DNA of 13,143 bases, taken from a virus. Lineage: Duplodnaviria; Heunggongvirae; Uroviricota; Caudoviricetes. The notes below the pieces were generated by a model. It saw nothing but the letters and a program-made list of their open reading frames with translations, was not told where the DNA came from and searched no databases. Shown in pieces: positions 1-13,143 of this stretch. Position 1 is the first letter of the stretch. Each line of letters starts with the position of its first letter. Both the position numbers and the translations under genes were made by a program. The stretch lies in the IMG/VR virus record IMGVR_UViG_2579778631_000018, one strand, 5' to 3'.

Positions 1-996
1 TTATGGACGCATTATGGACATTCCTGACACCGGGTTAAGAGTCACTGCATCTTGTAAGAAATCCGGTGCAAAGTGTGCGTAGGTCATAGTTTGCTGAATG
101 TTAGAATGACCTAGGATGCGCTGCAATGTGATTATGTTACCTCCATTCATTATAAAATGTGTGGCAAATGTATGCCTCAAAACATGCACTGCCTGTCCGT
201 CAGGTAAATCGGGTTTTACTTCCCTGAGAGCGTTACGCACTTTGTAGTAACTGGCATTAAAAAGCCTGCCTGAATTTTTGGTCTTGATCCGTTTAATCAG
301 GTCCTGCGAAACGGGAATTGTCCTGCGCTTTCCGTTTTTAGTTTTCATAAACGTAACCATCTGGTTAATGATGTGTTCAGCTTTTAAATTAGACACTTCA
401 CTCCAGCGTCCACCAGTAGAAAGGCAGACCAGAGTCGCATTTAATTCATCACCATCAAGCATGGATAACAGTCGCGTAATCTCTTCACTGGACAAAAAAG
501 CCATTTCTGTAACAGCTTCACGTAACCGCTTAACCTCACGGAACGGGTTGTGAGAGTGGTATTCACCGGCGTCAATTAACTTGGTGAACATCCCGCTCAT
601 TATTGCCAGATGCCGATTTACGCTGGCTGGTTTTAGACCATCGTTCATCATTACAACGCGATAATCAGTTATCGTTTTCTTTGTTAGCTGGTCAGCTCTG
701 GACACTCCCATTTCTGCAAATTTGGCGATTATTGTCGTTAAACGCCCCCGTTCAATATCTCCACGCTCATGTGATTTTCCGTGATATATCCACCATCTGC
801 CTAACAACTCTGTAAGAGTTCGGCGGTCGGCTGGTTTCTCCAGCCACTCTTTGTTGTGGTAGTTAACCAGTACATGACGTTCGAATGCTTGAGCTTCACC
901 TTTAGTTTTAAATTTTCGCCTGATACGTTTTCCATCTGCACCCTGCGGTCTGACGTCCACTTCATAACGACCATCATCGAGCTTTTTAATAGACAT
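1..996 (-). CDS. int: Tyrosine site-specific integrase, P2-type (331 aa)
   Basis: Complete minus-strand ORF (ATG at 996-994, TAA at 3-1). N-terminus MSIKKLDDGRYEVDVRP... closely parallels phage P2 Int as I recall it. C-terminal catalytic boxes HVLRHTFATH and LGHSNIQQTMTYAHF are typical of tyrosine recombinases. Sits beside the C repressor, as in P2. Confidence 0.9.
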   Translation of the reverse strand: MSIKKLDDGRYEVDVRPQGADGKRIRRKFKTKGEAQAFERHVLVNYHNKEWLEKPADRRTLTELLGRWWIYHGKSHERGDIERGRLTTIIAKFAEMGVSRADQLTKKTITDYRVVMMNDGLKPASVNRHLAIMSGMFTKLIDAGEYHSHNPFREVKRLREAVTEMAFLSSEEITRLLSMLDGDELNATLVCLSTGGRWSEVSNLKAEHIINQMVTFMKTKNGKRRTIPVSQDLIKRIKTKNSGRLFNASYYKVRNALREVKPDLPDGQAVHVLRHTFATHFIMNGGNIITLQRILGHSNIQQTMTYAHFAPDFLQDAVTLNPVSGMSIMRP

Positions 997-1089: not shown

Positions 1090-1389
1090 TCAGCCAGTTT
1101 TCTGGTCTGAGTGGTGCAAGGTTGTTGAGTCTTGCCCAATGTGTGCGAGAGCCGGGGCTATTTGTCCAGCTGCTGGATCTGTTTCATCAAACATGAACCA
1201 GTCACGATACTTGCGAAAGCGTGGATGCTTAAACAGCTTCATACCTGCTTCCATAGGCATTTTTGATTTTCCTGATTCATATCCATGATATGTGTAGTAA
1301 TTAATTCCAATTAATTCAGCAAGTTCCTTAGTTTTAAGGCGTTCGGATTCACGGATGAGCTTTAGTTTTTCACTTTGTTCACTTGACAT
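1090..1389 (-). CDS. C: P2-type immunity repressor C (99 aa)
   Basis: The ORF track begins at an upstream TTG (1407); the in-frame ATG at 1389-1387 with GGAG about 12 nt upstream gives 99 aa. The C-terminal tail GQIAPALAHIGQDSTTLHHSDQKTG matches my recollection of the P2 C tail (GQIAPALAHFGQ...SGQKTG). Divergently oriented to cox, as in the P2 Pc/Pe switch. Confidence 0.8.
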   Translation of the reverse strand: MSSEQSEKLKLIRESERLKTKELAELIGINYYTYHGYESGKSKMPMEAGMKLFKHPRFRKYRDWFMFDETDPAAGQIAPALAHIGQDSTTLHHSDQKTG

Positions 1390-1482
1390 AATTTTGCTAA
1401 TCTCCAATTATATTGTTACTTGGCAATTTGTGATTCACTCAAAAAGGCTCTAGATGGCTCCGGTTGGTGAATCGCAAATCTT
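1390..1482. promoter_or_regulatory. Divergent Pc/Pe promoter-operator region of the lysogeny switch
   Basis: 93-bp gap between the divergent C and cox starts. Contains short repeated elements: ttggcaa/ttggtga, gtgattcac (about 1430-1438), gtgaatcgc (about 1467-1475), and ggctc twice. Operator assignment is positional only. Confidence 0.5.
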
Positions 1483-3346: not shown

Positions 3347-3618
3347 GTATTCGTATTGAAATTGGCGAACGTTATGTCGTTACCAGTGACAGCTTCCAGT
3401 TTATTCTCCACGAGAAAAAGAGAGCGGAAAGCGGTAAAAACGCCGGTCAGGAATGGCTGGCGGTGGTTGGTTATTACCCGAAATTAAGCCAGCTTGTTTC
3501 CGGCCTGATGCATCACGATATTCTGACCGGAAGCGCAAAGTCTTTTGCTGATTTAAACGCGCAGGTTGAGCAACTCAGCAGGCGTTGTTCAGAGGCTTTT
3601 GGCTCATATGGCCGTTAA
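3343..3618 (+). CDS. Hypothetical early protein (91 aa; P2 orf83 position)
   Basis: Start overlaps the orf82-like stop; its 3' end overlaps the gene A start by 11 nt. No family recognised. Confidence 0.5.
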   Translation: MSIRIEIGERYVVTSDSFQFILHEKKRAESGKNAGQEWLAVVGYYPKLSQLVSGLMHHDILTGSAKSFADLNAQVEQLSRRCSEAFGSYGR

Positions 3619-5731
3619 AGCCTCCGGGCGTTTTGTCCCTCCGTCAGCATTTGCTGCAGGCACCGGTAAGGCGTTTACCGGTGCTTATGCATGGAACGCG
3701 CCACGCGAGGCCGTCGGGCGCGAAAGACCCCTTACACGTGACGAGATGCGTCAGGTGCAAGGTGTTTTATCCACGATTAACCGCCTGCCTTACTTTTTGC
3801 GCTCGCTGTTTACTTCACGCTATGACTACATCCGGCGCAATAAAAGCCCGGTGCACGGGTTTTATTTCCTCACATCCACTTTTCAGCGTCGTTTATGGCC
3901 GCGCATTGAGCGCGTGAATCAGCGCCATGAAATGAACACCGACGCGTCGTTGCTGTTTCTGGCAGAGCGTGACCATTATGCGCGTCTGCCGGGGATGAAT
4001 GATAAGGAGCTGAAAAAGTTTGCCGCCCGTATCTCATCGCAGCTTTTCATGATGTATGAGGAACTCTGCGATGCCTGGGTGGATGCGCATGGCGAAAAAG
4101 AATCGCTGTTTACGGATGAGGCGCAGGCTCACCTCTATGGTCATGTTGCTGGCGCTGCACGTGCTTTCAATATTTCCCCGCTCTACTGGAAAAAATACCG
4201 TAAAGGACAGATGACCACGAGGCAGGCATATTCTGCCATTGCCCGCCTGTTTAACGATGAGTGGTGGATTAGTCAGCTTAAAGGCCAGCGTATGCGCTGG
4301 CATGAGGCGTTACTGATTGCTGTCGGGGAGGTCAATAAAGACCGTTCACCTTATGCCAGTAAACATGCCATTCGTGATGTGCGTGCACGCCGCCAGGCAA
4401 ATCTGGAATTTCTTAAATCGTGTGACCTTGAAAACAGGGAAACCGGCGAACGCATCGACCTTATCAGTAAGGTGATGGGCAGTATTTCTAATCCTGAAAT
4501 TCGCCGGATGGAGCTGATGAACACCATTGCCGGTATTGAGCGTTACGCCGCCGCAGAGGGTGATGTGGGGATGTTTATCACGCTTACCGCGCCGTCAAAG
4601 TATCACCCGACACGTCAGGTCGGAAAAGGCGAAAGTAAAACCGTCCAGCTAAATCACGGCTGGAACGATGAGGCATTTAATCCAAAGGATGCGCAGCGTT
4701 ATCTCTGCCATATCTGGAGCCTGATGCGCACGGCATTCAAGGATAATGATTTACAGGTCTACGGTTTGCGTGTCGTCGAGCCACACCACGACGGAACGCC
4801 GCACTGGCATATGATGCTTTTTTGTAATCCACGCCAGCGTAACCAGATTATCGAAATCATGCGTCGCTATGCGCTCAAAGAGGATGGCGACGAAAGAGGA
4901 GCCGCGCGAAACCGTTTTCAGGCAAAACATCTTAACCGGGGCGGTGCTGCGGGGTATATCGCAAAATACATCTCAAAAAACATCGATGGCTATGCACTGG
5001 ATGGTCAGCTCGATAATGATACCGGCAGGCCGCTGAAAGATACTGCTGCGGCTGTTACCGCATGGGCGTCAACGTGGCGAATTCCGCAATTTAAAACGGT
5101 TGGCCTGCCGACAATGGGGGCTTACCGTGAACTACGCAAATTGCCTCGCGGCGTCAGTATTGCTGATGAGTTTGACGAACGCGTCGAGGCTGCTCGCGCT
5201 GCCGCAGACAGTGGTGATTTTGCGTTGTATATCAGCGCGCAGGGTGGGGCAAATGTCCCGCGCGATTGTCAGACTGTCAGGGTTGCCCGTAGCCCGTCGG
5301 ATGACGTTAACGAGTACGAGGAAGAAGTCGAGAGAGTGGTCGGCATTTACGCGCCGCATCTCGGCGCGCGTCATATTCATATCACCAGAACGACGGACTG
5401 GCGCATTGTGCCGAAAGTTCCGGTCGTTGAGCCTTTGACTTTAAAAAGCGGCATCGCCGCGCCTCGGAGTCCTGTCAATAACTGTGGAAAACTCACCTGT
5501 GGCGATACTTCGTTACCGGCTCCCACACCTTCTGAGCACGCCGCAGCAGTGCTTAATCTGGTAGATGACGGTGTTATCGAATGGAATGACCCGGAGGTCT
5601 TGAAAGTGCTTAATCTGGCATTGAAAATAGAAGCATCACGTAAATGTACAAACAAAGGAGACACACGAGCAGGCATAGTTGGCGAGTCAACCGCGATTTT
5701 CAATGTACAGGATGCTGATAATCAACAATGA
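3608..5731 (+). CDS. A: Replication initiation endonuclease gpA (HUH rolling-circle initiator, 707 aa)
   Basis: ATG at 3608 with AGAGG 12 nt upstream; the ORF-track start at 3566 is an upstream TTG. N-terminus MAVKASGRFVPPSAFAAGTGK matches my memory of P2 gpA. HUH-type metal motif EPHHDGTPHWHMMLF and the double-tyrosine motif GYIAKYISK (compare phiX174 A protein YVAKYVNK) are present. Confidence 0.9.
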   Translation: MAVKASGRFVPPSAFAAGTGKAFTGAYAWNAPREAVGRERPLTRDEMRQVQGVLSTINRLPYFLRSLFTSRYDYIRRNKSPVHGFYFLTSTFQRRLWPRIERVNQRHEMNTDASLLFLAERDHYARLPGMNDKELKKFAARISSQLFMMYEELCDAWVDAHGEKESLFTDEAQAHLYGHVAGAARAFNISPLYWKKYRKGQMTTRQAYSAIARLFNDEWWISQLKGQRMRWHEALLIAVGEVNKDRSPYASKHAIRDVRARRQANLEFLKSCDLENRETGERIDLISKVMGSISNPEIRRMELMNTIAGIERYAAAEGDVGMFITLTAPSKYHPTRQVGKGESKTVQLNHGWNDEAFNPKDAQRYLCHIWSLMRTAFKDNDLQVYGLRVVEPHHDGTPHWHMMLFCNPRQRNQIIEIMRRYALKEDGDERGAARNRFQAKHLNRGGAAGYIAKYISKNIDGYALDGQLDNDTGRPLKDTAAAVTAWASTWRIPQFKTVGLPTMGAYRELRKLPRGVSIADEFDERVEAARAAADSGDFALYISAQGGANVPRDCQTVRVARSPSDDVNEYEEEVERVVGIYAPHLGARHIHITRTTDWRIVPKVPVVEPLTLKSGIAAPRSPVNNCGKLTCGDTSLPAPTPSEHAAAVLNLVDDGVIEWNDPEVLKVLNLALKIEASRKCTNKGDTRAGIVGESTAIFNVQDADNQQ

Positions 5732-5846
5732 TAGCTATTGTGACTATGCTAACCCTATGAATCTATTGTGTGATTATGAGTAATGACTTTTTCTAATATT
5801 TGATTTTTAATGTAGTAACTTAGCTAATTTTAAAATTTGTAAAAGG
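5732..5846 (+). promoter_or_regulatory. AT-rich intergenic leader, putative promoter of the cargo operon
   Basis: 115 bp of very AT-rich sequence between the A stop and the SIR2 start, with several loose -35/-10-like hexamers (TTGATT ... TAAAAT). AAGGA precedes the ATGs at 5847/5853. No exact promoter call is possible by eye. Confidence 0.35.
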
Positions 5847-7100
5847 ATGTTTATGTCGATTTATCAAGGTGGTAACAAGTTAAATGAGGATGATTTTCGT
5901 TCTCACGTTTATTCCTTGTGTCAATTAGATAATGTTGGCGTTCTGTTAGGTGCTGGTGCTTCTGTCGGTTGTGGTGGGAAAACGATGAAAGATGTATGGA
6001 AATCGTTTAAGCAAAACTACCCTGAGCTTTTGGGAGCACTTATTGATAAATATCTTCTGGTTTCGCAAATTGATTCTGATAACAATTTGGTCAATGTTGA
6101 ACTTTTGATAGATGAAGCAACTAAATTTCTTTCTGTAGCTAAAACTAGACGATGTGAAGATGAAGAGGAGGAATTCAGGAAGATATTAAGTTCATTATAT
6201 AAAGAGGTTACGAAGGCTGCATTATTAACAGGAGAACAGTTTAGAGAGAAAAATCAGGGTAAAAAAGATGCGTTTAAATATCACAAAGAGTTAATTTCAA
6301 AATTAATTTCAAATAGACAGCCCGGTCAGTCGGCTCCGGCAATTTTTACAACAAATTATGATTTGGCCTTAGAGTGGGCTGCAGAAGATTTAGGAATACA
6401 GTTGTTTAATGGTTTTTCTGGGCTACATACACGGCAGTTTTATCCCCAGAATTTTGATTTGGCTTTCAGAAATGTAAATGCGAAGGGCGAAGCAAGATTC
6501 GGACATTATCATGCGTATCTCTATAAATTACATGGCTCACTTACGTGGTATCAAAATGATAGCTTGACTGTTAACGAAGTTAGTGCATCTCAAGCATATG
6601 ATGAATATATTAATGACATAATCAATAAAGATGACTTTTATCGCGGTCAACATTTGATTTATCCAGGGGCGAATAAATATAGCCATACAATCGGCTTCGT
6701 TTATGGAGAGATGTTTAGACGTTTTGGGGAGTTTATTTCGAAACCTCAAACAGCGTTGTTCATAAATGGGTTTGGTTTCGGTGATTATCATATAAATAGA
6801 ATAATATTAGGCGCGTTACTGAATCCATCTTTCCATGTTGTTATATATTATCCTGAATTGGAAGAAGCAATTACCAAAGTAAGTAAGGGTGGCGGTTCGG
6901 AAGCTGAGAAAGCTATTGTTACTTTAAAAAACATGGCTTTCAATCAAGTAACTGTAGTTGGGGGAGGAAGCAAGGCATATTTTAATAGTTTCGTAGAACA
7001 TCTACCATACCCTGTGCTCTTTCCACGAGATAATATTGTTGATGAGTTGGTTGAAGCAATTGCTAATCTTTCTAAAGGAGAAGGTAATGTCCCTTTTTAA
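5847..7100 (+). CDS. SIR2-family (sirtuin-like) NAD-binding protein, defence-associated (about 417 aa)
   Basis: Glycine loop LLGAGAS (aa 33-39, nt 5949-5963), TTNYD (aa 168-172) and LHGS (aa 228-231) occur in the order and spacing of the SIR2 fold. Low-GC gene directly upstream of, and overlapping, a HerA-like ATPase. The start could be ATG 5847 or 5853. Confidence 0.8.
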   Translation: MFMSIYQGGNKLNEDDFRSHVYSLCQLDNVGVLLGAGASVGCGGKTMKDVWKSFKQNYPELLGALIDKYLLVSQIDSDNNLVNVELLIDEATKFLSVAKTRRCEDEEEEFRKILSSLYKEVTKAALLTGEQFREKNQGKKDAFKYHKELISKLISNRQPGQSAPAIFTTNYDLALEWAAEDLGIQLFNGFSGLHTRQFYPQNFDLAFRNVNAKGEARFGHYHAYLYKLHGSLTWYQNDSLTVNEVSASQAYDEYINDIINKDDFYRGQHLIYPGANKYSHTIGFVYGEMFRRFGEFISKPQTALFINGFGFGDYHINRIILGALLNPSFHVVIYYPELEEAITKVSKGGGSEAEKAIVTLKNMAFNQVTVVGGGSKAYFNSFVEHLPYPVLFPRDNIVDELVEAIANLSKGEGNVPF

Positions 7101-8919
7101 ACTTACTGAAATCTCGGCTATTGGATACGTTGTAGGATTAGAAGGGGAAAGAATTAGGATAAACCTGCATGAGGGGTTGCAAGGCAGATTAGCATCGCAT
7201 AGAAAGGGGGTGAGCTCAGTAACGCAACCAGGAGATCTTATTGGGTTCGATGCAGGTAATATATTAGTTGTCGCAAGAGTGACAGATATGGCATTTGTTG
7301 AAGCGGATAAAGCGCATAAGGCAAATGTAGGCACATCTGATTTAGCTGATATACCTCTAAGACAAATTATCGCCTATGCAATTGGCTTTGTGAAAAGGGA
7401 GTTAAATGGTTATGTTTTTATATCAGAAGATTGGCGCTTACCTGCATTGGGTTCTTCTGCTGTTCCTTTGACTTCAGATTTTTTGAACATCATTTATAGT
7501 ATTGATAAAGAAGAACTCCCAAAAGCGGTTGAATTAGGTGTGGATTCTCGAACTAAAACCGTTAAGATATTTGCAAGTGTTGATAAATTATTGTCGCGAC
7601 ACTTAGCCGTTCTTGGTAGTACAGGATATGGTAAATCAAATTTCAATGCTTTGTTAACGAGGAAGGTTTCTGAAAAATACCCTAACTCAAGAATAGTTAT
7701 TTTTGACATAAATGGTGAATACGCGCAAGCTTTTACAGGTATTCCAAATGTAAAGCACACTATTCTAGGGGAATCCCCAAATGTTGATAGTTTGGAAAAA
7801 AATCAGCAAAAGGGTGAGCTATATAGTGAAGAGTATTATTGTTATAAAAAGATACCATATCAGGCATTAGGTTTTGCTGGGTTAATTAAATTATTAAGAC
7901 CAAGTGATAAAACACAATTGCCCGCATTAAGAAATGCATTAAGTGCAATTAATCGGACTCATTTTAAAGGCCGTAATATTTACTTGGAAAAAGATGATGG
8001 TGAAACTTTTCTTTTGTATGATGATTGTCGTGACACAAATCAAAGTAAATTGGCTGAGTGGTTGGATTTATTAAGGCGTAGACGTCTTAAAAGAACGAAT
8101 GTATGGCCACCGTTTAAAAGTTTAGCGACTTTGGTTGCTGAATTTGGATGTGTAGCTGCTGACCGTTCTAATGGAAGTAAACGTGACGCGTTTGGTTTTA
8201 GTAACGTGTTGCCATTGGTAAAAATCATACAACAACTTGCAGAGGATATAAGATTTAAATCTATTGTTAATTTAAATGGAGGGGGTGAGCTAGCAGATGG
8301 TGGAACGCATTGGGATAAAGCTATGAGTGATGAAGTTGATTACTTCTTTGGTAAGGAAAAAGGACAAGAAAATGATTGGAATGTTCATATAGTTAATATG
8401 AAAAATTTGGCACAAGATCATGCTCCAATGTTACTTAGTGCATTGTTGGAGATGTTTGCTGAGATACTATTTAGACGTGGGCAGGAACGTTCGTATCCTA
8501 CGGTACTTTTGTTGGAAGAAGCGCATCATTACCTGCGTGACCCTTATGCTGAAATTGACTCACAGATTAAAGCATATGAACGACTTGCTAAAGAAGGTAG
8601 GAAATTCAAATGCTCTTTAATTGTCAGTACTCAGCGACCCTCAGAGCTTTCTCCTACTGTTTTGGCAATGTGTTCAAACTGGTTTTCGTTACGTTTGACT
8701 AATGAAAGAGATTTACAGGCACTCAGATATGCAATGGAAAGCGGTAATGAACAAATCTTAAAACAAATATCAGGTTTACCAAGAGGTGATGCTGTTGCAT
8801 TTGGTTCTGCATTTAATTTGCCTGTAAGAATTTCAATTAATCAAGCAAGGCCAGGGCCAAAATCTTCAGATGCTGTTTTTTCTGAAGAATGGGCTAATTG
8901 TACAGAATTACGTTGTTAA
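7087..8919 (+). CDS. herA: HerA-family P-loop ATPase, defence-associated (about 610 aa)
   Basis: ATG at 7087 with a strong AAAGGAG SD 6 nt upstream; the ORF-track start at 7036 is a TTG. Walker A GSTGYGKS (nt 7615-7638), downstream VIFDINGEY, Walker B VLLLEEAHHY and LIVSTQRPSEL, all typical of HerA/FtsK-type ATPases. An N-terminal region of about 175 aa before the P-loop is consistent with a HAS-barrel. Confidence 0.8.
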   Translation: MSLFKLTEISAIGYVVGLEGERIRINLHEGLQGRLASHRKGVSSVTQPGDLIGFDAGNILVVARVTDMAFVEADKAHKANVGTSDLADIPLRQIIAYAIGFVKRELNGYVFISEDWRLPALGSSAVPLTSDFLNIIYSIDKEELPKAVELGVDSRTKTVKIFASVDKLLSRHLAVLGSTGYGKSNFNALLTRKVSEKYPNSRIVIFDINGEYAQAFTGIPNVKHTILGESPNVDSLEKNQQKGELYSEEYYCYKKIPYQALGFAGLIKLLRPSDKTQLPALRNALSAINRTHFKGRNIYLEKDDGETFLLYDDCRDTNQSKLAEWLDLLRRRRLKRTNVWPPFKSLATLVAEFGCVAADRSNGSKRDAFGFSNVLPLVKIIQQLAEDIRFKSIVNLNGGGELADGGTHWDKAMSDEVDYFFGKEKGQENDWNVHIVNMKNLAQDHAPMLLSALLEMFAEILFRRGQERSYPTVLLLEEAHHYLRDPYAEIDSQIKAYERLAKEGRKFKCSLIVSTQRPSELSPTVLAMCSNWFSLRLTNERDLQALRYAMESGNEQILKQISGLPRGDAVAFGSAFNLPVRISINQARPGPKSSDAVFSEEWANCTELRC

Positions 8920-9076
8920 TTACCTGATGTACATGGCTAGTGCAAGTTGGTAGCGCATGTCTATATGCATTTATTTGCATGTGTTTTATTGAGTGAGCGC
9001 ACAAGCTTGATGACCCGACAGGTATGTATTTAGACTGAATTTACACCTGCATTAAAACCGCCCCACGAAGCGGGCG

Positions 9077-9095
9077 GGCGAGGCGGGGAAAGCAC
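9077..9095. other. cos site: 19-nt P2-type cohesive-end sequence GGCGAGGCGGGGAAAGCAC
   Basis: Exact match to the P2 cohesive-end sequence as I recall it, located between the cargo genes and Q, where cos lies in a P2 prophage. Confidence 0.75.
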
Positions 9096-9235
9096 TGCGC
9101 GCTGGCGGTGGTGCTGATTTTATTTTTTCAGCGTCTGAGCGCGTCGTGATGGCGTTTAGATTGTTCGCCGGGGCGTTGGTGTGTCTGCGGGATGTTTTGT
9201 GCGGTGGTGAGCGTGTGAGGGCGTGATGACAGGGT

Positions 9236-9258
9236 GTAAAAAGCCGCCCGCAGGCGGC
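9236..9258 (-). terminator. Intrinsic terminator downstream of Q (end of the P-Q late transcript)
   Basis: On the minus strand: GC stem gccgcc / ggcggc with a 4-nt loop, followed by TTTTT, immediately 3' of the Q stop codon (9264-9266). Confidence 0.55.
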
Positions 9259-9263
9259 GATGT

Positions 9264-10298
9264 TCAGCCGTTGTCAGTGTCCAGTGAGTAGTTTTTAAAG
9301 CGGATGACCTCCTGACCTAGCCAGCCGTTTATCTCGCGGATCCTGTCCTGTAACGGGATAAGCTCATTGCGGACAAAGACCTTTGCCACTTTCTCAATAT
9401 CACCCAGCGACCCGACGTTCTCCGGCTTGCCGCCCATCAACTGAAAAGGGATGCGGTGCGCGTCCAGCAGGTCTGCGGCGCTGGCTTTTTTGATATTAAA
9501 AAAATCGTCCTTCGTCGCCACTTCACTGAGCGGGATAATTTTAATGCCGTCGGCTTTCCCCTGTGGGGCATAGAGAAACAGGTTTTTAAAGTTGTTGCGG
9601 CCTTTCGACTTCACCATGTTTTCGCGAAGCATTTCGATATCGTTGCGGTCCTGCACGGCATCGGTGACGTACATGATGTATCCGGCATGTGCGCCGTTTT
9701 CGTAATACTTGCGGCGGAACAGCGTGGCCGACTCATTCAGCCAGGCAGAGTTAAGGGCGCTGAGATATTCCGGCAGGCCGTACAGCTCCTGATTAACATC
9801 GGGCTCCAGCAGGTGAAACACGGAGCCGGGCGCGAAGGCTGTCGGCTCGTTGAAGGACGGCACCCACCAGTAAACATCCTCCTCCACGCCACGGCGGGTA
9901 TATTTTGCCGGTGAGGTTTCCAGTCTGATGACCTTACCGGTGGTGCTGTAACGCTTTTCCAGAAACGCATTACCGAACACCAGAAAATCCAGCACAAAGC
10001 GGCTGAAATCCTGTTGCGAAAGCCACGGATGCGGGATAAATGTCGAGGCCAGAATATTGCGTTTAACGTAAATCGGTGAGCTGTGATGCACGGCAGCACG
10101 CAGGCTTTTCGCCAGACCGGTAAAGCTGACCGGTGGCTCATACCATCTGCCGTTACTGATGCATTCGACGTAATTCAGAATGTCACGGCGGTCGAGTACC
10201 GGTACCGGCTCACCAAAGGTGAATGCCTCCATTTTCGGGGCGCTGGCGGTGATTGTTTTTGCCGCAGGTTGCGGTGTTTTCCCTTTTTTCTTGCTCAT
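9264..10298 (-). CDS. Q: Portal protein gpQ (344 aa)
   Basis: 344 aa, identical in length to P2 gpQ (from memory). Its start codon overlaps the P stop (ATGA) and it lies between cos and P, as in P2. Confidence 0.85.
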   Translation of the reverse strand: MSKKKGKTPQPAAKTITASAPKMEAFTFGEPVPVLDRRDILNYVECISNGRWYEPPVSFTGLAKSLRAAVHHSSPIYVKRNILASTFIPHPWLSQQDFSRFVLDFLVFGNAFLEKRYSTTGKVIRLETSPAKYTRRGVEEDVYWWVPSFNEPTAFAPGSVFHLLEPDVNQELYGLPEYLSALNSAWLNESATLFRRKYYENGAHAGYIMYVTDAVQDRNDIEMLRENMVKSKGRNNFKNLFLYAPQGKADGIKIIPLSEVATKDDFFNIKKASAADLLDAHRIPFQLMGGKPENVGSLGDIEKVAKVFVRNELIPLQDRIREINGWLGQEVIRFKNYSLDTDNG

Positions 10299-12070
10299 CA
10301 GTAAAACTCCAGAATGGTGGATGTCAGCGGGGTGCTGATACCGGCGGTGAGTGGCTCATTTAACAGGGCGTGCATGGTCGCCCAGGCGAGGTCGGCGTGG
10401 CTGGCTTCCTCGCTGCGGCTGGCCTCATAGGTGGCGCTGCGTCCGCTGCTGGTCATGGTCTTGCGGATAGCCATAAACGAGCTGGTGATGTCGGTGGCGC
10501 TGACGTCATATTCCAGACAGCCACGGCGAATAACGTCTTTTGCCTTGAGCACCATTGCGGTTTTCATTTCCGGCGTGTAGCGGATATCGCGCGCGGCGGG
10601 ATAGAACGAGCGCACGAGCTGGAACACGCCGACACCGAGGCCGGTGGCATCAATACCGATGTATTCGACGTTGTATTTTTCGGTGAGTTTGCGGATGGAT
10701 TCCGCCTGAGTGGCAAAGTCCATGCCTTTCCACTGGTGACGCTCAAGTATTCTGAATTTGCCACCGGCCACCACCGGCGGTGCCAGCACCACGCATCCGG
10801 CGCTGTCGCCACGGTGTGACGGGTCGTAACCAATCCATACCGGGCGGGAGCCGAACGGATTGGCGGCAAACGGCGCATAGTCTTCCCATTCTTCCAGCGT
10901 GTCGACCATACAGCGTTGCAGCTCCTCGAACGGGAACACCGACGCCTTGTCGTCAACAAATTCACACATGAACAGGTTTTTAAAATCGTCGGCGCTGTTT
11001 TCGCGTTTGAGCTGCTCAATGTCGAACAGCGTGCAGCCGCCTTTCAGCGCGTCCTCAATGGTGACAATCTGCCGCCACTGGCCGTCCGCACAGAGAAGCC
11101 CACCGGCAAGGGCGTTATGACTGACGTCGATTTCCACGCGTTCGGCGGCGCTGGCGCGTCCCCGGTTGAACAGTTCACCCGACCAGAACGGGTAGGCGTC
11201 GTGCGCCAGCGTGGACGGGGTGGAGAAATAGGTCGATCGCAGGTGACTCTGTGAGGCCATACCTGATGCCACCTTACGCAGCACCTGAAAATTCGGGATC
11301 CAGAAAATCTCGTCGACGTACAGGTCGCCGTTATGGCTCTGTGCGGTGTTGGAGTTGGTGCCGAGAAAAATCAGTTTTGCGCCGTTATTGCCCAGGACAA
11401 TCGGGTCACCGGTCAGGTCAACGTCAACCAGCCGGGCAAAGGCGATGATGTATTCGCGGAACACATACGCCTGCGTTTTACTGGCCGACAGAAAAATCTG
11501 GTTATGACCGGTTTTCAGGGCGCGCAGCAGCGCCTCGCGGGAAAAATAAAACGTCGCGCCAATCTGGCGGGATTTCAGGATATCGCGGATGCGGTGCTCA
11601 AGCCCGGCGCGATACCAGTGCAACTGATATTCGAAAGACTGCTCAAAGAAAATCTGCTCCAGCTTTTCGATGGCCTCGTCGCTGAAAAAATTCTTTTTCG
11701 GTTTGCGACGCCCGCCTTTGTTGCGGTTAGCGACGTTCGGATTAAGGTCTGCTTCGTTGCCGGTCTGGCTGTAGCGGTTGACCCGTGCCAGTCGTTCAAT
11801 CTGGCGTCCGAGCAGGTCAATTTCCTTGAAGTCACCGCCGGTTTTCTGCGGTTTGATGATGAGCTGGGTCAGCCGCGCTTCCAGACTCATTTCGACACGG
11901 CTGATGGGGGCAACGCTGTCCCAGCCGTCGCGCTGTTTCCAGCTCTGCACCGTCGGGCGTTTCATCTGCAACATGGCGGCAATCTGCGGCACGGAAAACC
12001 CCTGCCAGTACAGCAGCGCCGCCTGACGACGCGGGTCGTGTAAAAGAGTGGTGTCTGTGGTGATGGTCAT
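10298..12070 (-). CDS. P: Terminase large (ATPase) subunit gpP (590 aa)
   Basis: ATG at 12070-12068 with GAGG 8 nt upstream gives 590 aa, the P2 gpP length as I recall; the ORF track extends to an upstream TTG at 12100. Gene order cos-Q-P is conserved. Confidence 0.85.
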   Translation of the reverse strand: MTITTDTTLLHDPRRQAALLYWQGFSVPQIAAMLQMKRPTVQSWKQRDGWDSVAPISRVEMSLEARLTQLIIKPQKTGGDFKEIDLLGRQIERLARVNRYSQTGNEADLNPNVANRNKGGRRKPKKNFFSDEAIEKLEQIFFEQSFEYQLHWYRAGLEHRIRDILKSRQIGATFYFSREALLRALKTGHNQIFLSASKTQAYVFREYIIAFARLVDVDLTGDPIVLGNNGAKLIFLGTNSNTAQSHNGDLYVDEIFWIPNFQVLRKVASGMASQSHLRSTYFSTPSTLAHDAYPFWSGELFNRGRASAAERVEIDVSHNALAGGLLCADGQWRQIVTIEDALKGGCTLFDIEQLKRENSADDFKNLFMCEFVDDKASVFPFEELQRCMVDTLEEWEDYAPFAANPFGSRPVWIGYDPSHRGDSAGCVVLAPPVVAGGKFRILERHQWKGMDFATQAESIRKLTEKYNVEYIGIDATGLGVGVFQLVRSFYPAARDIRYTPEMKTAMVLKAKDVIRRGCLEYDVSATDITSSFMAIRKTMTSSGRSATYEASRSEEASHADLAWATMHALLNEPLTAGISTPLTSTILEFY

Positions 12071-12243
12071 GAATACCTCGCCGTGATGAATACACGGCAA
12101 GGCTACTGAGTCGCGCCCCGCGATTCGCTAAGGTGCTGTTGTGTCAGTGATAAGCCATCCGGGACTGATGGCGGAGGATGCGTATCGTCGGGAAACTGAT
12201 GCCGACATGTGACTCCTCTAATCACTATTCAGGACTCCTGACA
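12071..12243. promoter_or_regulatory. Divergent late-promoter region between P (-) and O (+)
   Basis: Positional: in P2 this intergenic region carries the Ogr-dependent late promoters for the PQ and ONMLKRS operons. A partial dyad tgtga-N9-tcact is visible at about 12208-12226, but I found no exact TGT-N12-ACA element. Confidence 0.4.
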
Positions 12244-12360
12244 ATGGCAAAAAAAGTCTCAAAATTCTTTCGTATCGGCGTTGCGTATTTTCATGAAAGG
12301 AGATCACTCAATAACTTCCATCGAGATCGGGTAATAACATTTGAACAGATCGCTGAATAA
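12244..12360 (+). pseudogene. O: Capsid scaffold gene O, truncated by insertion (first about 13 codons intact)
   Basis: ATG at 12244 encodes MAKKVSKFFRIGV, which matches the P2 gpO N-terminus as I recall it (MAKKVSKFFRIGVEG...). The frame then reads unrelated sequence and stops at 12358-12360. The ORF-track start at 12178 is an upstream in-frame ATG, probably not used. Confidence 0.65.
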
Positions 12361-12419
12361 CATCGATGGAGATCACTTTTGACTCATTTTGTTATTCAGT
12401 GATCTCCATCAATGTTATT
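12354..12419. repeat. Imperfect inverted repeat of about 22 bp (tgaataacatcgatggagatcac / its complement, 1 mismatch), 20-bp spacer
   Basis: Read directly from the sequence: 12354-12377 versus 12398-12419. A further direct copy of ggagatcact lies at about 12299-12308. Lies in the presumed IS terminal region, upstream of istA. Confidence 0.6.
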
Positions 12420-12474
12420 GGAACTTCACAGGTGTGTTGATCTGTATCTTTTGCCATTCCGGTAAAGGATACCT

Positions 12475-13143
12475 ATGCCAACAGTTCCAATTTCTATGAG
12501 AAAACTTAAAGAAATTCTTAGGCTTAAATACGGTGTTGGACTCAGCCATCGACAAATTGGTCGTAGTCTTGCAATCTCCCCTTCCGTTGTATCCAGATAT
12601 GCTAATCGGGCGGCTCAACTTGGCATAAAGCAGTGGCCCTTACCTACAGGATGGGATGATACAAAACTAAAACATGCGTTCCTTCAGACCCAGGTTAAGA
12701 TGAAGAAGCACTCTCTGCCTGACTGGGCTACAGTACACCGGGAACTGCGTAATAAATGCGTGACGCTGCAGCTACTCTGGGAAGAATACTGTGAGCGTAA
12801 TCCAGGCGGTTTTTACAGCTATAACCATTACTGCCGGATGTACCGTGAATGGCTCAAAACCACTTCACCATCAATGCGTCAGGTACATAAAGCTGGCGAA
12901 AAACTTTTCGTTGATTACTGTGGACCTACCGTTGGCGTTACCGACCCTGAGACCGGAGAAATAAGAACTGCTCAGGTCATCGTAGCTGTTCTCGGGGCAT
13001 CAAGTTACACATGGGCAGAGGCCACCTGGTCTCAGCAGCTTGAAGACTGGGTGATGAGTCATGTTCGCTGCTTCCAGTGGTTGGGTGGCGTTCCTGAACT
13101 TGTTGTTCCGGACAATCTGAAAAGCGCCACATCCAGGGCATGT
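12475..13143 (+). CDS. istA: IS21-family transposase IstA, N-terminal 223 codons (3' partial)
   Basis: ATG at 12475 with AAAGGA 5 nt upstream; the frame is open to the window end. N-terminal HTH MPTVPISMRKLKEILRLKYGVGLSHRQIGRSLAISPSVVSRY is characteristic of IstA, followed by the start of the DDE core (KLFVDYCGPTVGV...). Absent from the ORF track because no stop falls in the window. Confidence 0.8.
   Translation, partial: MPTVPISMRKLKEILRLKYGVGLSHRQIGRSLAISPSVVSRYANRAAQLGIKQWPLPTGWDDTKLKHAFLQTQVKMKKHSLPDWATVHRELRNKCVTLQLLWEEYCERNPGGFYSYNHYCRMYREWLKTTSPSMRQVHKAGEKLFVDYCGPTVGVTDPETGEIRTAQVIVAVLGASSYTWAEATWSQQLEDWVMSHVRCFQWLGGVPELVVPDNLKSATSRAC

Follow-up and report, generated by a model that had tools for sequence, protein, structure and literature searches.

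Defence cargo of variable content between genes A and Q is a described property of P2-like prophages. Rousset et al. 2022 (PMC9122126) reported 1,650 gene arrangements among 18,150 loci of the gpA-gpQ hotspot, and in their Table S5B the entry 'SIR2 | DUF87 = SIR2 + HerA (Gao et al., 2020)' ranks 14th by frequency (188 loci); a 2026 Nucleic Acids Research (NAR) study of P2/P4 hotspots (PMC13586616) presents gpA-gpQ as the main P2 hotspot, with very rapid swapping. Here we compare with these systems a viral DNA of 13,143 nucleotides (nt), IMG/VR record IMGVR_UViG_2579778631_000018 (the window: the whole stretch that was analysed), which comes from a P2-like (Peduovirus) prophage of E. coli and covers its left arm, int-C-cox-B-A ... 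cos-Q-P. We conclude with high confidence that its positions 5604-9043 are a mobile SIR2-HerA cassette in the gpA-to-cos/gpQ hotspot, exchanged by homologous recombination between P2-like genomes.

In position, in flanks and in its AT-rich, variable defence cargo, the interval does not differ in kind from the described hotspot (also called 'tin/old' or TO-region). The two hotspot studies (PMC9122126, PMC13586616) are at gene level, whereas here the junctions are resolved at nucleotide level; in the searched text of both there was no mention of these junctions, of the truncated gpA or of the TGCAT element described below. The representative HerA of the table in PMC9122126 is a different allele from that of the window. 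The tin/old genes of P2 occupy the same locus and presumably have the same role, the exclusion of other phages by the lysogen, but are unrelated to SIR2-HerA (no alignment). They are read leftward from a promoter ~150 nt left of cos, whereas SIR2-HerA is read rightward like gene A; and gpA of P2 is full-length, with 761 amino acids (aa), against 707 aa in the window. The cos-adjacent hotspot of P4 shares the cos core and a TGCAT-N5-TGCAT pair at -111, but lies across cos in the gop/beta/cII region, the P2-type hotspot being on the opposite side. SIR2+HerA is also among the P4 hotspot cargos in PMC9122126, and P2 and P4 almost never exchange defence genes according to PMC13586616.

Judged by their sequences, the two cargo genes make up the SIR2-HerA ('Nezha') anti-phage system, in the allele with solved structure and enzymology. 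The SIR2 NADase subunit (5853-7100, plus strand, 415 aa) matches PADLOC SIR2 model PDLC02186 at E=4e-190 and is identical at 414/415 residues to PDB 8j4u_A/8su9. The HerA ATPase/helicase subunit (7087-8919, plus strand, 610 aa) matches PADLOC HerA model PDLC02185 at E=4e-277 and Pfam DUF87, with 608/610 residues identical to PDB 8j4u_M. The top PADLOC models span both proteins end to end, and SIR2 scores 507 bits with the NCBIfam model SIR2_antiphage (cut-off 500). The start codons of the solved proteins fall at 5853 and 7087; the genes are co-oriented, and the start of HerA overlaps the stop of SIR2 by 14 nt, so they form an operon. Upstream of SIR2 lies an AT-rich leader (5732-5852, plus strand; 23-31% GC, from direct reading of the sequence and a fine GC profile) with a ribosome-binding site, AAGGA, at 5843-5847; expression in the lysogen would start from a putative promoter in this leader. 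A classification of the SIR2-HerA systems of E. coli, published in 2026, names 8J4U 'Nezha'. The characterised Nezha (PDB 8J4U, 8SU9) thus differs by one substitution in SIR2 and two in HerA and has the same stop/start overlap, but was characterised as a cloned operon, whereas here it stands in a natural P2-like prophage; the searched text of the classification paper makes no mention of a P2-prophage context.

SIR2-HerA has been shown to deplete NAD+ in E. coli upon infection (bioRxiv 10.1101/2024.02.11.579819). By analogy with the literature on near-identical proteins, SIR2 and HerA would assemble into one large complex, and infection by another phage would release an NADase with nuclease and helicase activities that depletes NAD+. 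Growth of the infected cell would stop and the invading phage would fail, i.e. abortive infection, by which the lysogen population, and with it the prophage, would be protected.

Eight P2-like relatives from the phage collection were compared with the window by blastn. The flanks of the interval are 96-98% identical to these Peduovirus genomes, and between breakpoints at 5603 and 9044/9049 there is no similarity to the window at all; the eight relatives carry eight unrelated cargos from A to cos. P2 has orf91/tin/old, as its record confirms; pro483 a DUF4238 gene; pro147 two reverse transcriptases with retron Ec48; PhiR44_1 Dcm with paraMORC3; STYP1 a Fic protein; 12474III a methyltransferase with a ParB-like gene; 'P2' magyaro a cytolethal distending toxin; and 569R9 a DUF4209 gene. 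The preliminary description of this DNA had recognised a variable hotspot in which tin and old are replaced by a SIR2-HerA pair, and both points hold: no blastn alignment joins 5604-9043 to P2, with its orf91, tin and old, and the only Pfam and PADLOC matches there are SIR2 and HerA, the pair being further identified by NCBIfam and PDB matches.

Base composition is discontinuous at both ends of the interval, far beyond chance. In a 400-nt profile, GC is 0.51-0.57 over 3400-5600, 0.335-0.41 over 5600-9000 and 0.54-0.60 over 9000-12200; a two-change-point maximum-likelihood segmentation with GC as its sole input placed the changes at 5599 and 9057 (segment GC 0.529, 0.366 and 0.566; log-likelihood gain of 147 over a single segment). 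GC at third codon positions (GC3) is 0.28 in SIR2 and 0.25 in HerA, against 0.55 in the A core, 0.66 in Q and 0.72 in P. Within-amino-acid codon fractions of phage genes and cargo correlate at 0.31, compared with 0.71 between phage genes and 0.93 between SIR2 and HerA. The cargo is thus AT-rich and compositionally foreign to the phage backbone (0.366 vs 0.53-0.57). A sharp GC drop after the A stop codon (5731), AT-richness across both cargo genes and a return to GC-rich sequence at cos and Q had been described; the GC and GC3 profiles bear out the drop, the AT-rich course and the return, a clear passage from 0.53 to 0.37 to 0.57, but the drop starts at ~5600, which is 128 nt within gene A.

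This left boundary (5599-5603) is defined by the GC change point and by blastn end points: homology to the eight phages ends at 5603 in seven of them and at 5610 in pro483. Nucleotide alignment with the relatives diverges directly after ...CCGGAGGTC. The boundary is therefore not the A stop codon, and what follows it within the gene (5604-5731, plus strand) is a replacement gpA C-terminus of 43 codons, LKVLNLALKIEASRKCTNKGDTRAGIVGESTAIFNVQDADNQQ*, whose first codon (5603-5605) straddles the breakpoint. With a GC3 of 0.28 the replacement tail is cargo-like, and it physically belongs to the swapped cassette. At the protein level gpA departs from its relatives after ...EWNDPEV and stops 43 residues on, so that the conserved C-terminus of ~90 aa has been replaced. 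Only the first ~9 residues of the new tail resemble the canonical one (LKVLNLALK vs VRALRGALK), and no canonical-tail remnant was found in any of its reading frames past the first 16 residues. In 7/8 relatives the last ~97 gpA residues are conserved and differ only in the final 5-15. Among gpA genes next to cos in IMG/VR (n=63), 49 have a canonical tail of 87-106 aa and eight belong to a second gpA lineage with tails beginning FIHG or FVHG; two have a diverged tail of 92 or 100 aa, two the 59-aa tail of the pro483 type, and two the 43-aa tail of the window, both at the identical distance of 3,345 nt from A stop to cos. Pfam gave no domain on the canonical gpA tail, and NCBIfam gave no hit on gpA. 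The NCBI PGAP annotation calls A a pseudogene, 'missing C-terminus', in 5/5 carriers of the cassette inspected. One idea is that the cassette originated in a low-GC P2-like phage, through its gpA allele.

The rolling-circle origin lies within the A core, with the nick predicted at ~5466, 137 nt left of the breakpoint; the position was transferred by alignment from the P2 record (nick at 5893; offset 427). We also observed an exact 14-nt direct repeat, AGTGCTTAATCTGG, at 5548-5561 and 5605-5618, 57 nt apart and in frame, both copies encoding VLNL. The second copy begins right at the left breakpoint, and the repeat resembles a short stretch of upstream sequence that was copied into the opening codons of the replacement gpA tail.

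On the right, homology to the eight phages resumes at 9044 or 9049, in a conserved cos-proximal block (9044-9076) that consists of ACCTGCATTAAAACC followed by a GC hairpin (9058-9077); read on the minus strand, 9077-9058, the hairpin is terminator-like. The block abuts the cos cohesive-end 19-mer GGCGAGGCGGGGAAAGCAC (9077-9095, plus strand), an exact match to P2 with zero expected by chance, which equals the cosR feature of the P2 record and the first 19 bases of P4. Further left is an array of TGCAT repeats (8941-8980), with degenerate boxes TGCAA at 8941 and CGCAT at 8954 and exact boxes at 8966-8970 and 8976-8980. The exact TGCAT-N5-TGCAT pair (8966-8980) starts at -111 from cos, and the same offset was found in 11 loci with different cargo; one or two extra TGCAT-like boxes often precede it at ~10-nt intervals. 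Among distinct IMG/VR spacer clusters the pair lies at -113 to -110 in 41/46, and essentially at no other offset apart from a further repeat 10 nt upstream. The spacer between the pair and the cos block (8981-9043) is fixed in length (~63 nt) and free in sequence, varying with cargo type.

The same pair at the same offset occurs in P4, which shares only the cos region with P2, and there it lies on the psu side of cos (~11513-11527 of the P4 record) and not on the hotspot side. In P2 the motif is adjoined by the old-tin promoter, which reads leftward. Since the motif is kept in P4, and kept where the cargo reads the opposite way, we infer that it is part of the packaging signal: the array probably forms the distal portion of the cos (packaging) signal of P2 and P4, and probably also sets the functional right limit of the cargo space. 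Papers citing Ziermann and Calendar 1990 give no coordinates for the extent of the P2/P4 cos site. The free-sequence cargo space ends ~110-125 nt before cos, at the TGCAT repeat, and the cargo space proper only ~20-45 nt past the HerA stop codon (8919). A right end at 9076, as drawn in the preliminary description, is reasonable; homology resumes at 9044/9049, and the cargo space does not run to cos itself. Between cos and the end of Q, positions 9150-9171 hold a dense cluster of mismatches among otherwise similar carriers, a small hypervariable patch.

The 3,440-nt block, with gpA tail and right spacer included, was found in 20/5,426 complete E. coli genomes, where it is always chromosomal, single-copy and 99.6-99.9% identical. 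The replacement-tail DNA and the stretch 8920-9043 are confined to the same 20. The conserved 3' core of A was found at 1,929 places in 1,679 genomes, so the cassette occupies about 1% of these P2-type loci (20 of ~1,929), as variable cargo would and conserved core genes would not. Both junctions are base-identical in the 20 genomes, in two IMG/VR contigs and in one contig of a metagenome-assembled genome (MAG). At least two prophage backbones carry it: EC12, O121 201805972, O18 and XH987 have a P2-type int/C/cox and lie at yegR, and A17 shares with the window a different int and cox and a position at the pflA site.

Divergence is distributed very unevenly along the carriers. Compared with the window, they show 2-14 mismatches in the 3,440 nt of the cassette, 38-54 in 1,996 nt of the A core and 35-50 in 1,255 nt from cos to Q, so that the cassette is ~10-60 times less diverged than the adjoining DNA; that A and Q DNA, 96-98% identical, is as diverged between carriers as it is from phages with unrelated cargo. 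The cassette-like exchange proposed in the preliminary description is what this pattern supports, the same block with the same junctions standing in two integrase/immunity backbones and far less diverged than its flanks. Where the near-identical tract ends depends on the carrier: leaving aside a single-nucleotide polymorphism at 5491 private to the window, the last mismatch on the left is at 5068, 5284, 5410 or 5419, and the first on the right at 9105, 9129, 9150 or 9165. Because these ends vary within homologous flanks, they point to homologous recombination and not to a site-specific cut; and because the near-identical tract extends beyond the non-homologous block, the exchanged unit usually includes the origin and cos. 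Crossovers fall in conserved DNA, within gene A around and left of the replication origin and just right of cos, and the cassette therefore takes along a replacement end of gene A and a cos-distal TGCAT element of its own.

A 7-kb contig, JAEYGZ010000011.1 ('MAG: Bacillota bacterium'), also carries the cassette, at 99.5% identity. There the last ~127 codons of gpA directly follow a divergent int-C-cox, with B to most of A missing; the contig is a deleted element or else a chimera of assembly, and a binning error almost certainly explains its Bacillota label.

In another 26 complete E. coli genomes this hotspot holds one of two further SIR2-HerA alleles, with 73% nucleotide identity to the window; the three alleles have 76-83% mutual protein identity. 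Similarity of the further alleles to the window begins only at 5841 and is confined to the open reading frames (ORFs; 5841-8892). The ET210-type allele has a full-length gpA (770 aa), and in the CUVET16-819 type the canonical gpA tail has decayed and is cut short by a premature stop (706 aa), whereas the tail in the window is not recognisably gpA beyond ~30 nt. Some copies of these other alleles are decaying: HerA of CUVET16-819 has an internal stop (locus 5747-7561), and in strain T16R the match spans an insertion of IS903B. A P2-like prophage of Scandinavium lactucae has a fourth allele (86% protein identity), placed between a full-length A and Q. That prophage has an additional 401-aa ORF before Q (locus 10673-11878, minus strand) and a cos-like site at 10205, so this ORF stands between cos and Q. 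More distant homologues (56-61%) were found in Vibrio, Photobacterium, Shewanella, Marinomonas and Paraferrimonas, and no P2 genes were found within 7 kb of these marine gammaproteobacterial loci. Their GC, 0.385-0.41, equals that of their surroundings, so the family is compositionally at home in AT-richer gammaproteobacteria.

This last point bears on the reading of low GC as a mark of foreign origin. The AT-richness could instead come from selection or mutation bias acting on any accessory gene at the locus, for example through silencing by nucleoid proteins or lysogen-specific expression. In keeping with that, the cargo was AT-rich in 39/39 distinct IMG/VR intervals (GC 0.32-0.43, each well under the 0.53 of the A core), and the decayed CUVET gpA tail has drifted towards AT. 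The marine homologues, however, share the low GC in non-phage loci where it is the local background, and the cassette is so much younger than its flanks that drift in situ cannot account for its composition. We consider this explanation unlikely. It concerns the cause of the AT-richness alone and does not conflict with exchange of the cassette by homologous recombination.

Site-specific recombination, an integron-style swap by a dedicated recombinase with the TGCAT repeats, 5603 and 9044/9049 as crossover sites, has reportedly been proposed for this region (Nilsson and colleagues, 2004). It would account for breakpoints that recur at the same nucleotides in many phages and for a short conserved repeat near the right boundary, but the tract ends vary from one carrier to another and fall beyond the non-homologous block, and the left junctions vary with the cargo: most are in the last 5-15 codons of A, that of the window ~290 nt deeper. 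Moreover, the TGCAT pair is equally conserved in P4 on the psu side, away from the P4 hotspot. No recombinase or transposase gene was found between A and Q, in or beside the cassette, and no direct or inverted repeats pair its two junctions, the sole junction-associated repeat being the 14-nt one inside A. A dedicated swap is accordingly very improbable.

Independent insertion of the same SIR2-HerA DNA into each P2-like backbone, from a chromosome or a plasmid by illegitimate recombination, would suit the three diverged E. coli alleles and the Scandinavium allele, which differ in junctions and share the ORFs alone (so that several founding insertions must indeed have occurred), as well as the Vibrio, Photobacterium, Shewanella and Marinomonas homologues outside P2 contexts, but it has hardly any credibility for the allele of the window, whose junctions are base-identical in every carrier listed above, whose ends both bear P2-specific features (the gpA-like start of the tail; the TGCAT pair at correct spacing), and which is in no plasmid or phage record searched, the plasmid collection giving only matches of <=43% identity for this SIR2.

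Several observations weigh against a phage-borne, actively exchanged defence cassette. (i) HerA scores 709 bits with NCBIfam HerA_antiphage, under the cut-off of 800; we keep the assignment because near-identity to the solved protein outweighs this score. (ii) A promoter consensus scan of 5500-9300 gave 11 hits against 10.7 expected, with zero in the SIR2 leader. (iii) For this SIR2, the isolated-phage records of the phage collection gave only matches of <=32% identity. (iv) For the gpA tail and leader, neither tblastn against phages (E<=10) nor blastn against plasmids matched a source. (v) The three E. coli alleles have different junctions, so the original insertions, unlike the later exchange, used some other route. 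(vi) The prophage of the window looks defective, with gene O interrupted and gpA without its conserved C-terminus, and 'phage-borne' may here mean carried on a decaying prophage. The interruption is by ISEc12 (IS21-family, istA; window 12284-13143), inserted ~39 nt past the ATG (12245) of the capsid-scaffold gene O; the junction is near 12270-12283, and the homology of all P2-like relatives ends at 12283. Owing to it this copy can probably not build capsids, and the insertion together with the truncated gpA suggests that it is unable to produce particles. The defence cassette is intact despite both.

The account of the A-to-cos interval in the preliminary description is accurate once its left boundary is moved by 128 nt, and the evidence supports how it was interpreted. 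It is also already known, since Rousset et al. 2022 describe the gpA-gpQ hotspot and list SIR2+HerA as cargo; with the hotspot, the AT-rich cassette-like cargo and the SIR2-HerA pair all published, its value is as correct annotation, and it opens no new question. What our comparison adds is nucleotide-level evidence for homologous exchange, with crossovers around the origin and just past cos, and a natural setting for the structurally characterised Nezha allele, a P2-like prophage at pflA or yegR sites. Possibly new are only the cassette-linked gpA truncation and the fixed-phase TGCAT array beside cos. From the conserved phasing, the P2/P4 packaging signal may extend to the TGCAT-N5-TGCAT pair ~111 nt from the cos cut; if so, this element sets the true right limit of the hotspot, each cassette has its own copy, and that copy would explain how cassettes circulate among cos-bearing elements. 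The left crossover may have removed a ~90-aa C-terminal region of the essential gpA from a cassette still present in two backbones and many E. coli lineages; either this region is dispensable, or the SIR2-HerA cassette sits mostly on replication-defective, domesticated prophages. That the packaging signal reaches the array and that the cassette spread despite the lost gpA C-terminus, both possibly unreported, we put forward together only tentatively, as a combination that leans towards the doubtful. The truncated gpA and the array are cheaply testable in the P2/P4 system.

The remainder of the window is ordinary P2-like sequence: int (1-996, minus strand), C (1090-1407, minus strand), cox (1483-1854), B (2032-2532), orf80-83 between B and A, and A itself (3608-5731, plus strand, 707 aa). 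The conserved core of A (3608-5603, plus strand; Pfam Phage_GPA, E=4e-124) forms the left homologous flank of the hotspot, and the portal gene Q (9264-10298, minus strand; Pfam Phage_portal), 96-97% identical to relatives, the right one; P follows (10298-12100, minus strand). Pfam domains across the window are int, cox, gpA, SIR2_2, HerA/DUF87, portal and terminase, and an Rfam scan of its whole length found no RNA family. The int-C-cox module (1-1865) shows a second mosaic boundary: homology to most relatives stops left of ~1851-1865, with only 65-71% identity over parts of the module, and the same loss is seen in the yegR-site carriers of the SIR2-HerA cassette. The integrase/immunity module has therefore been swapped independently of the cargo.

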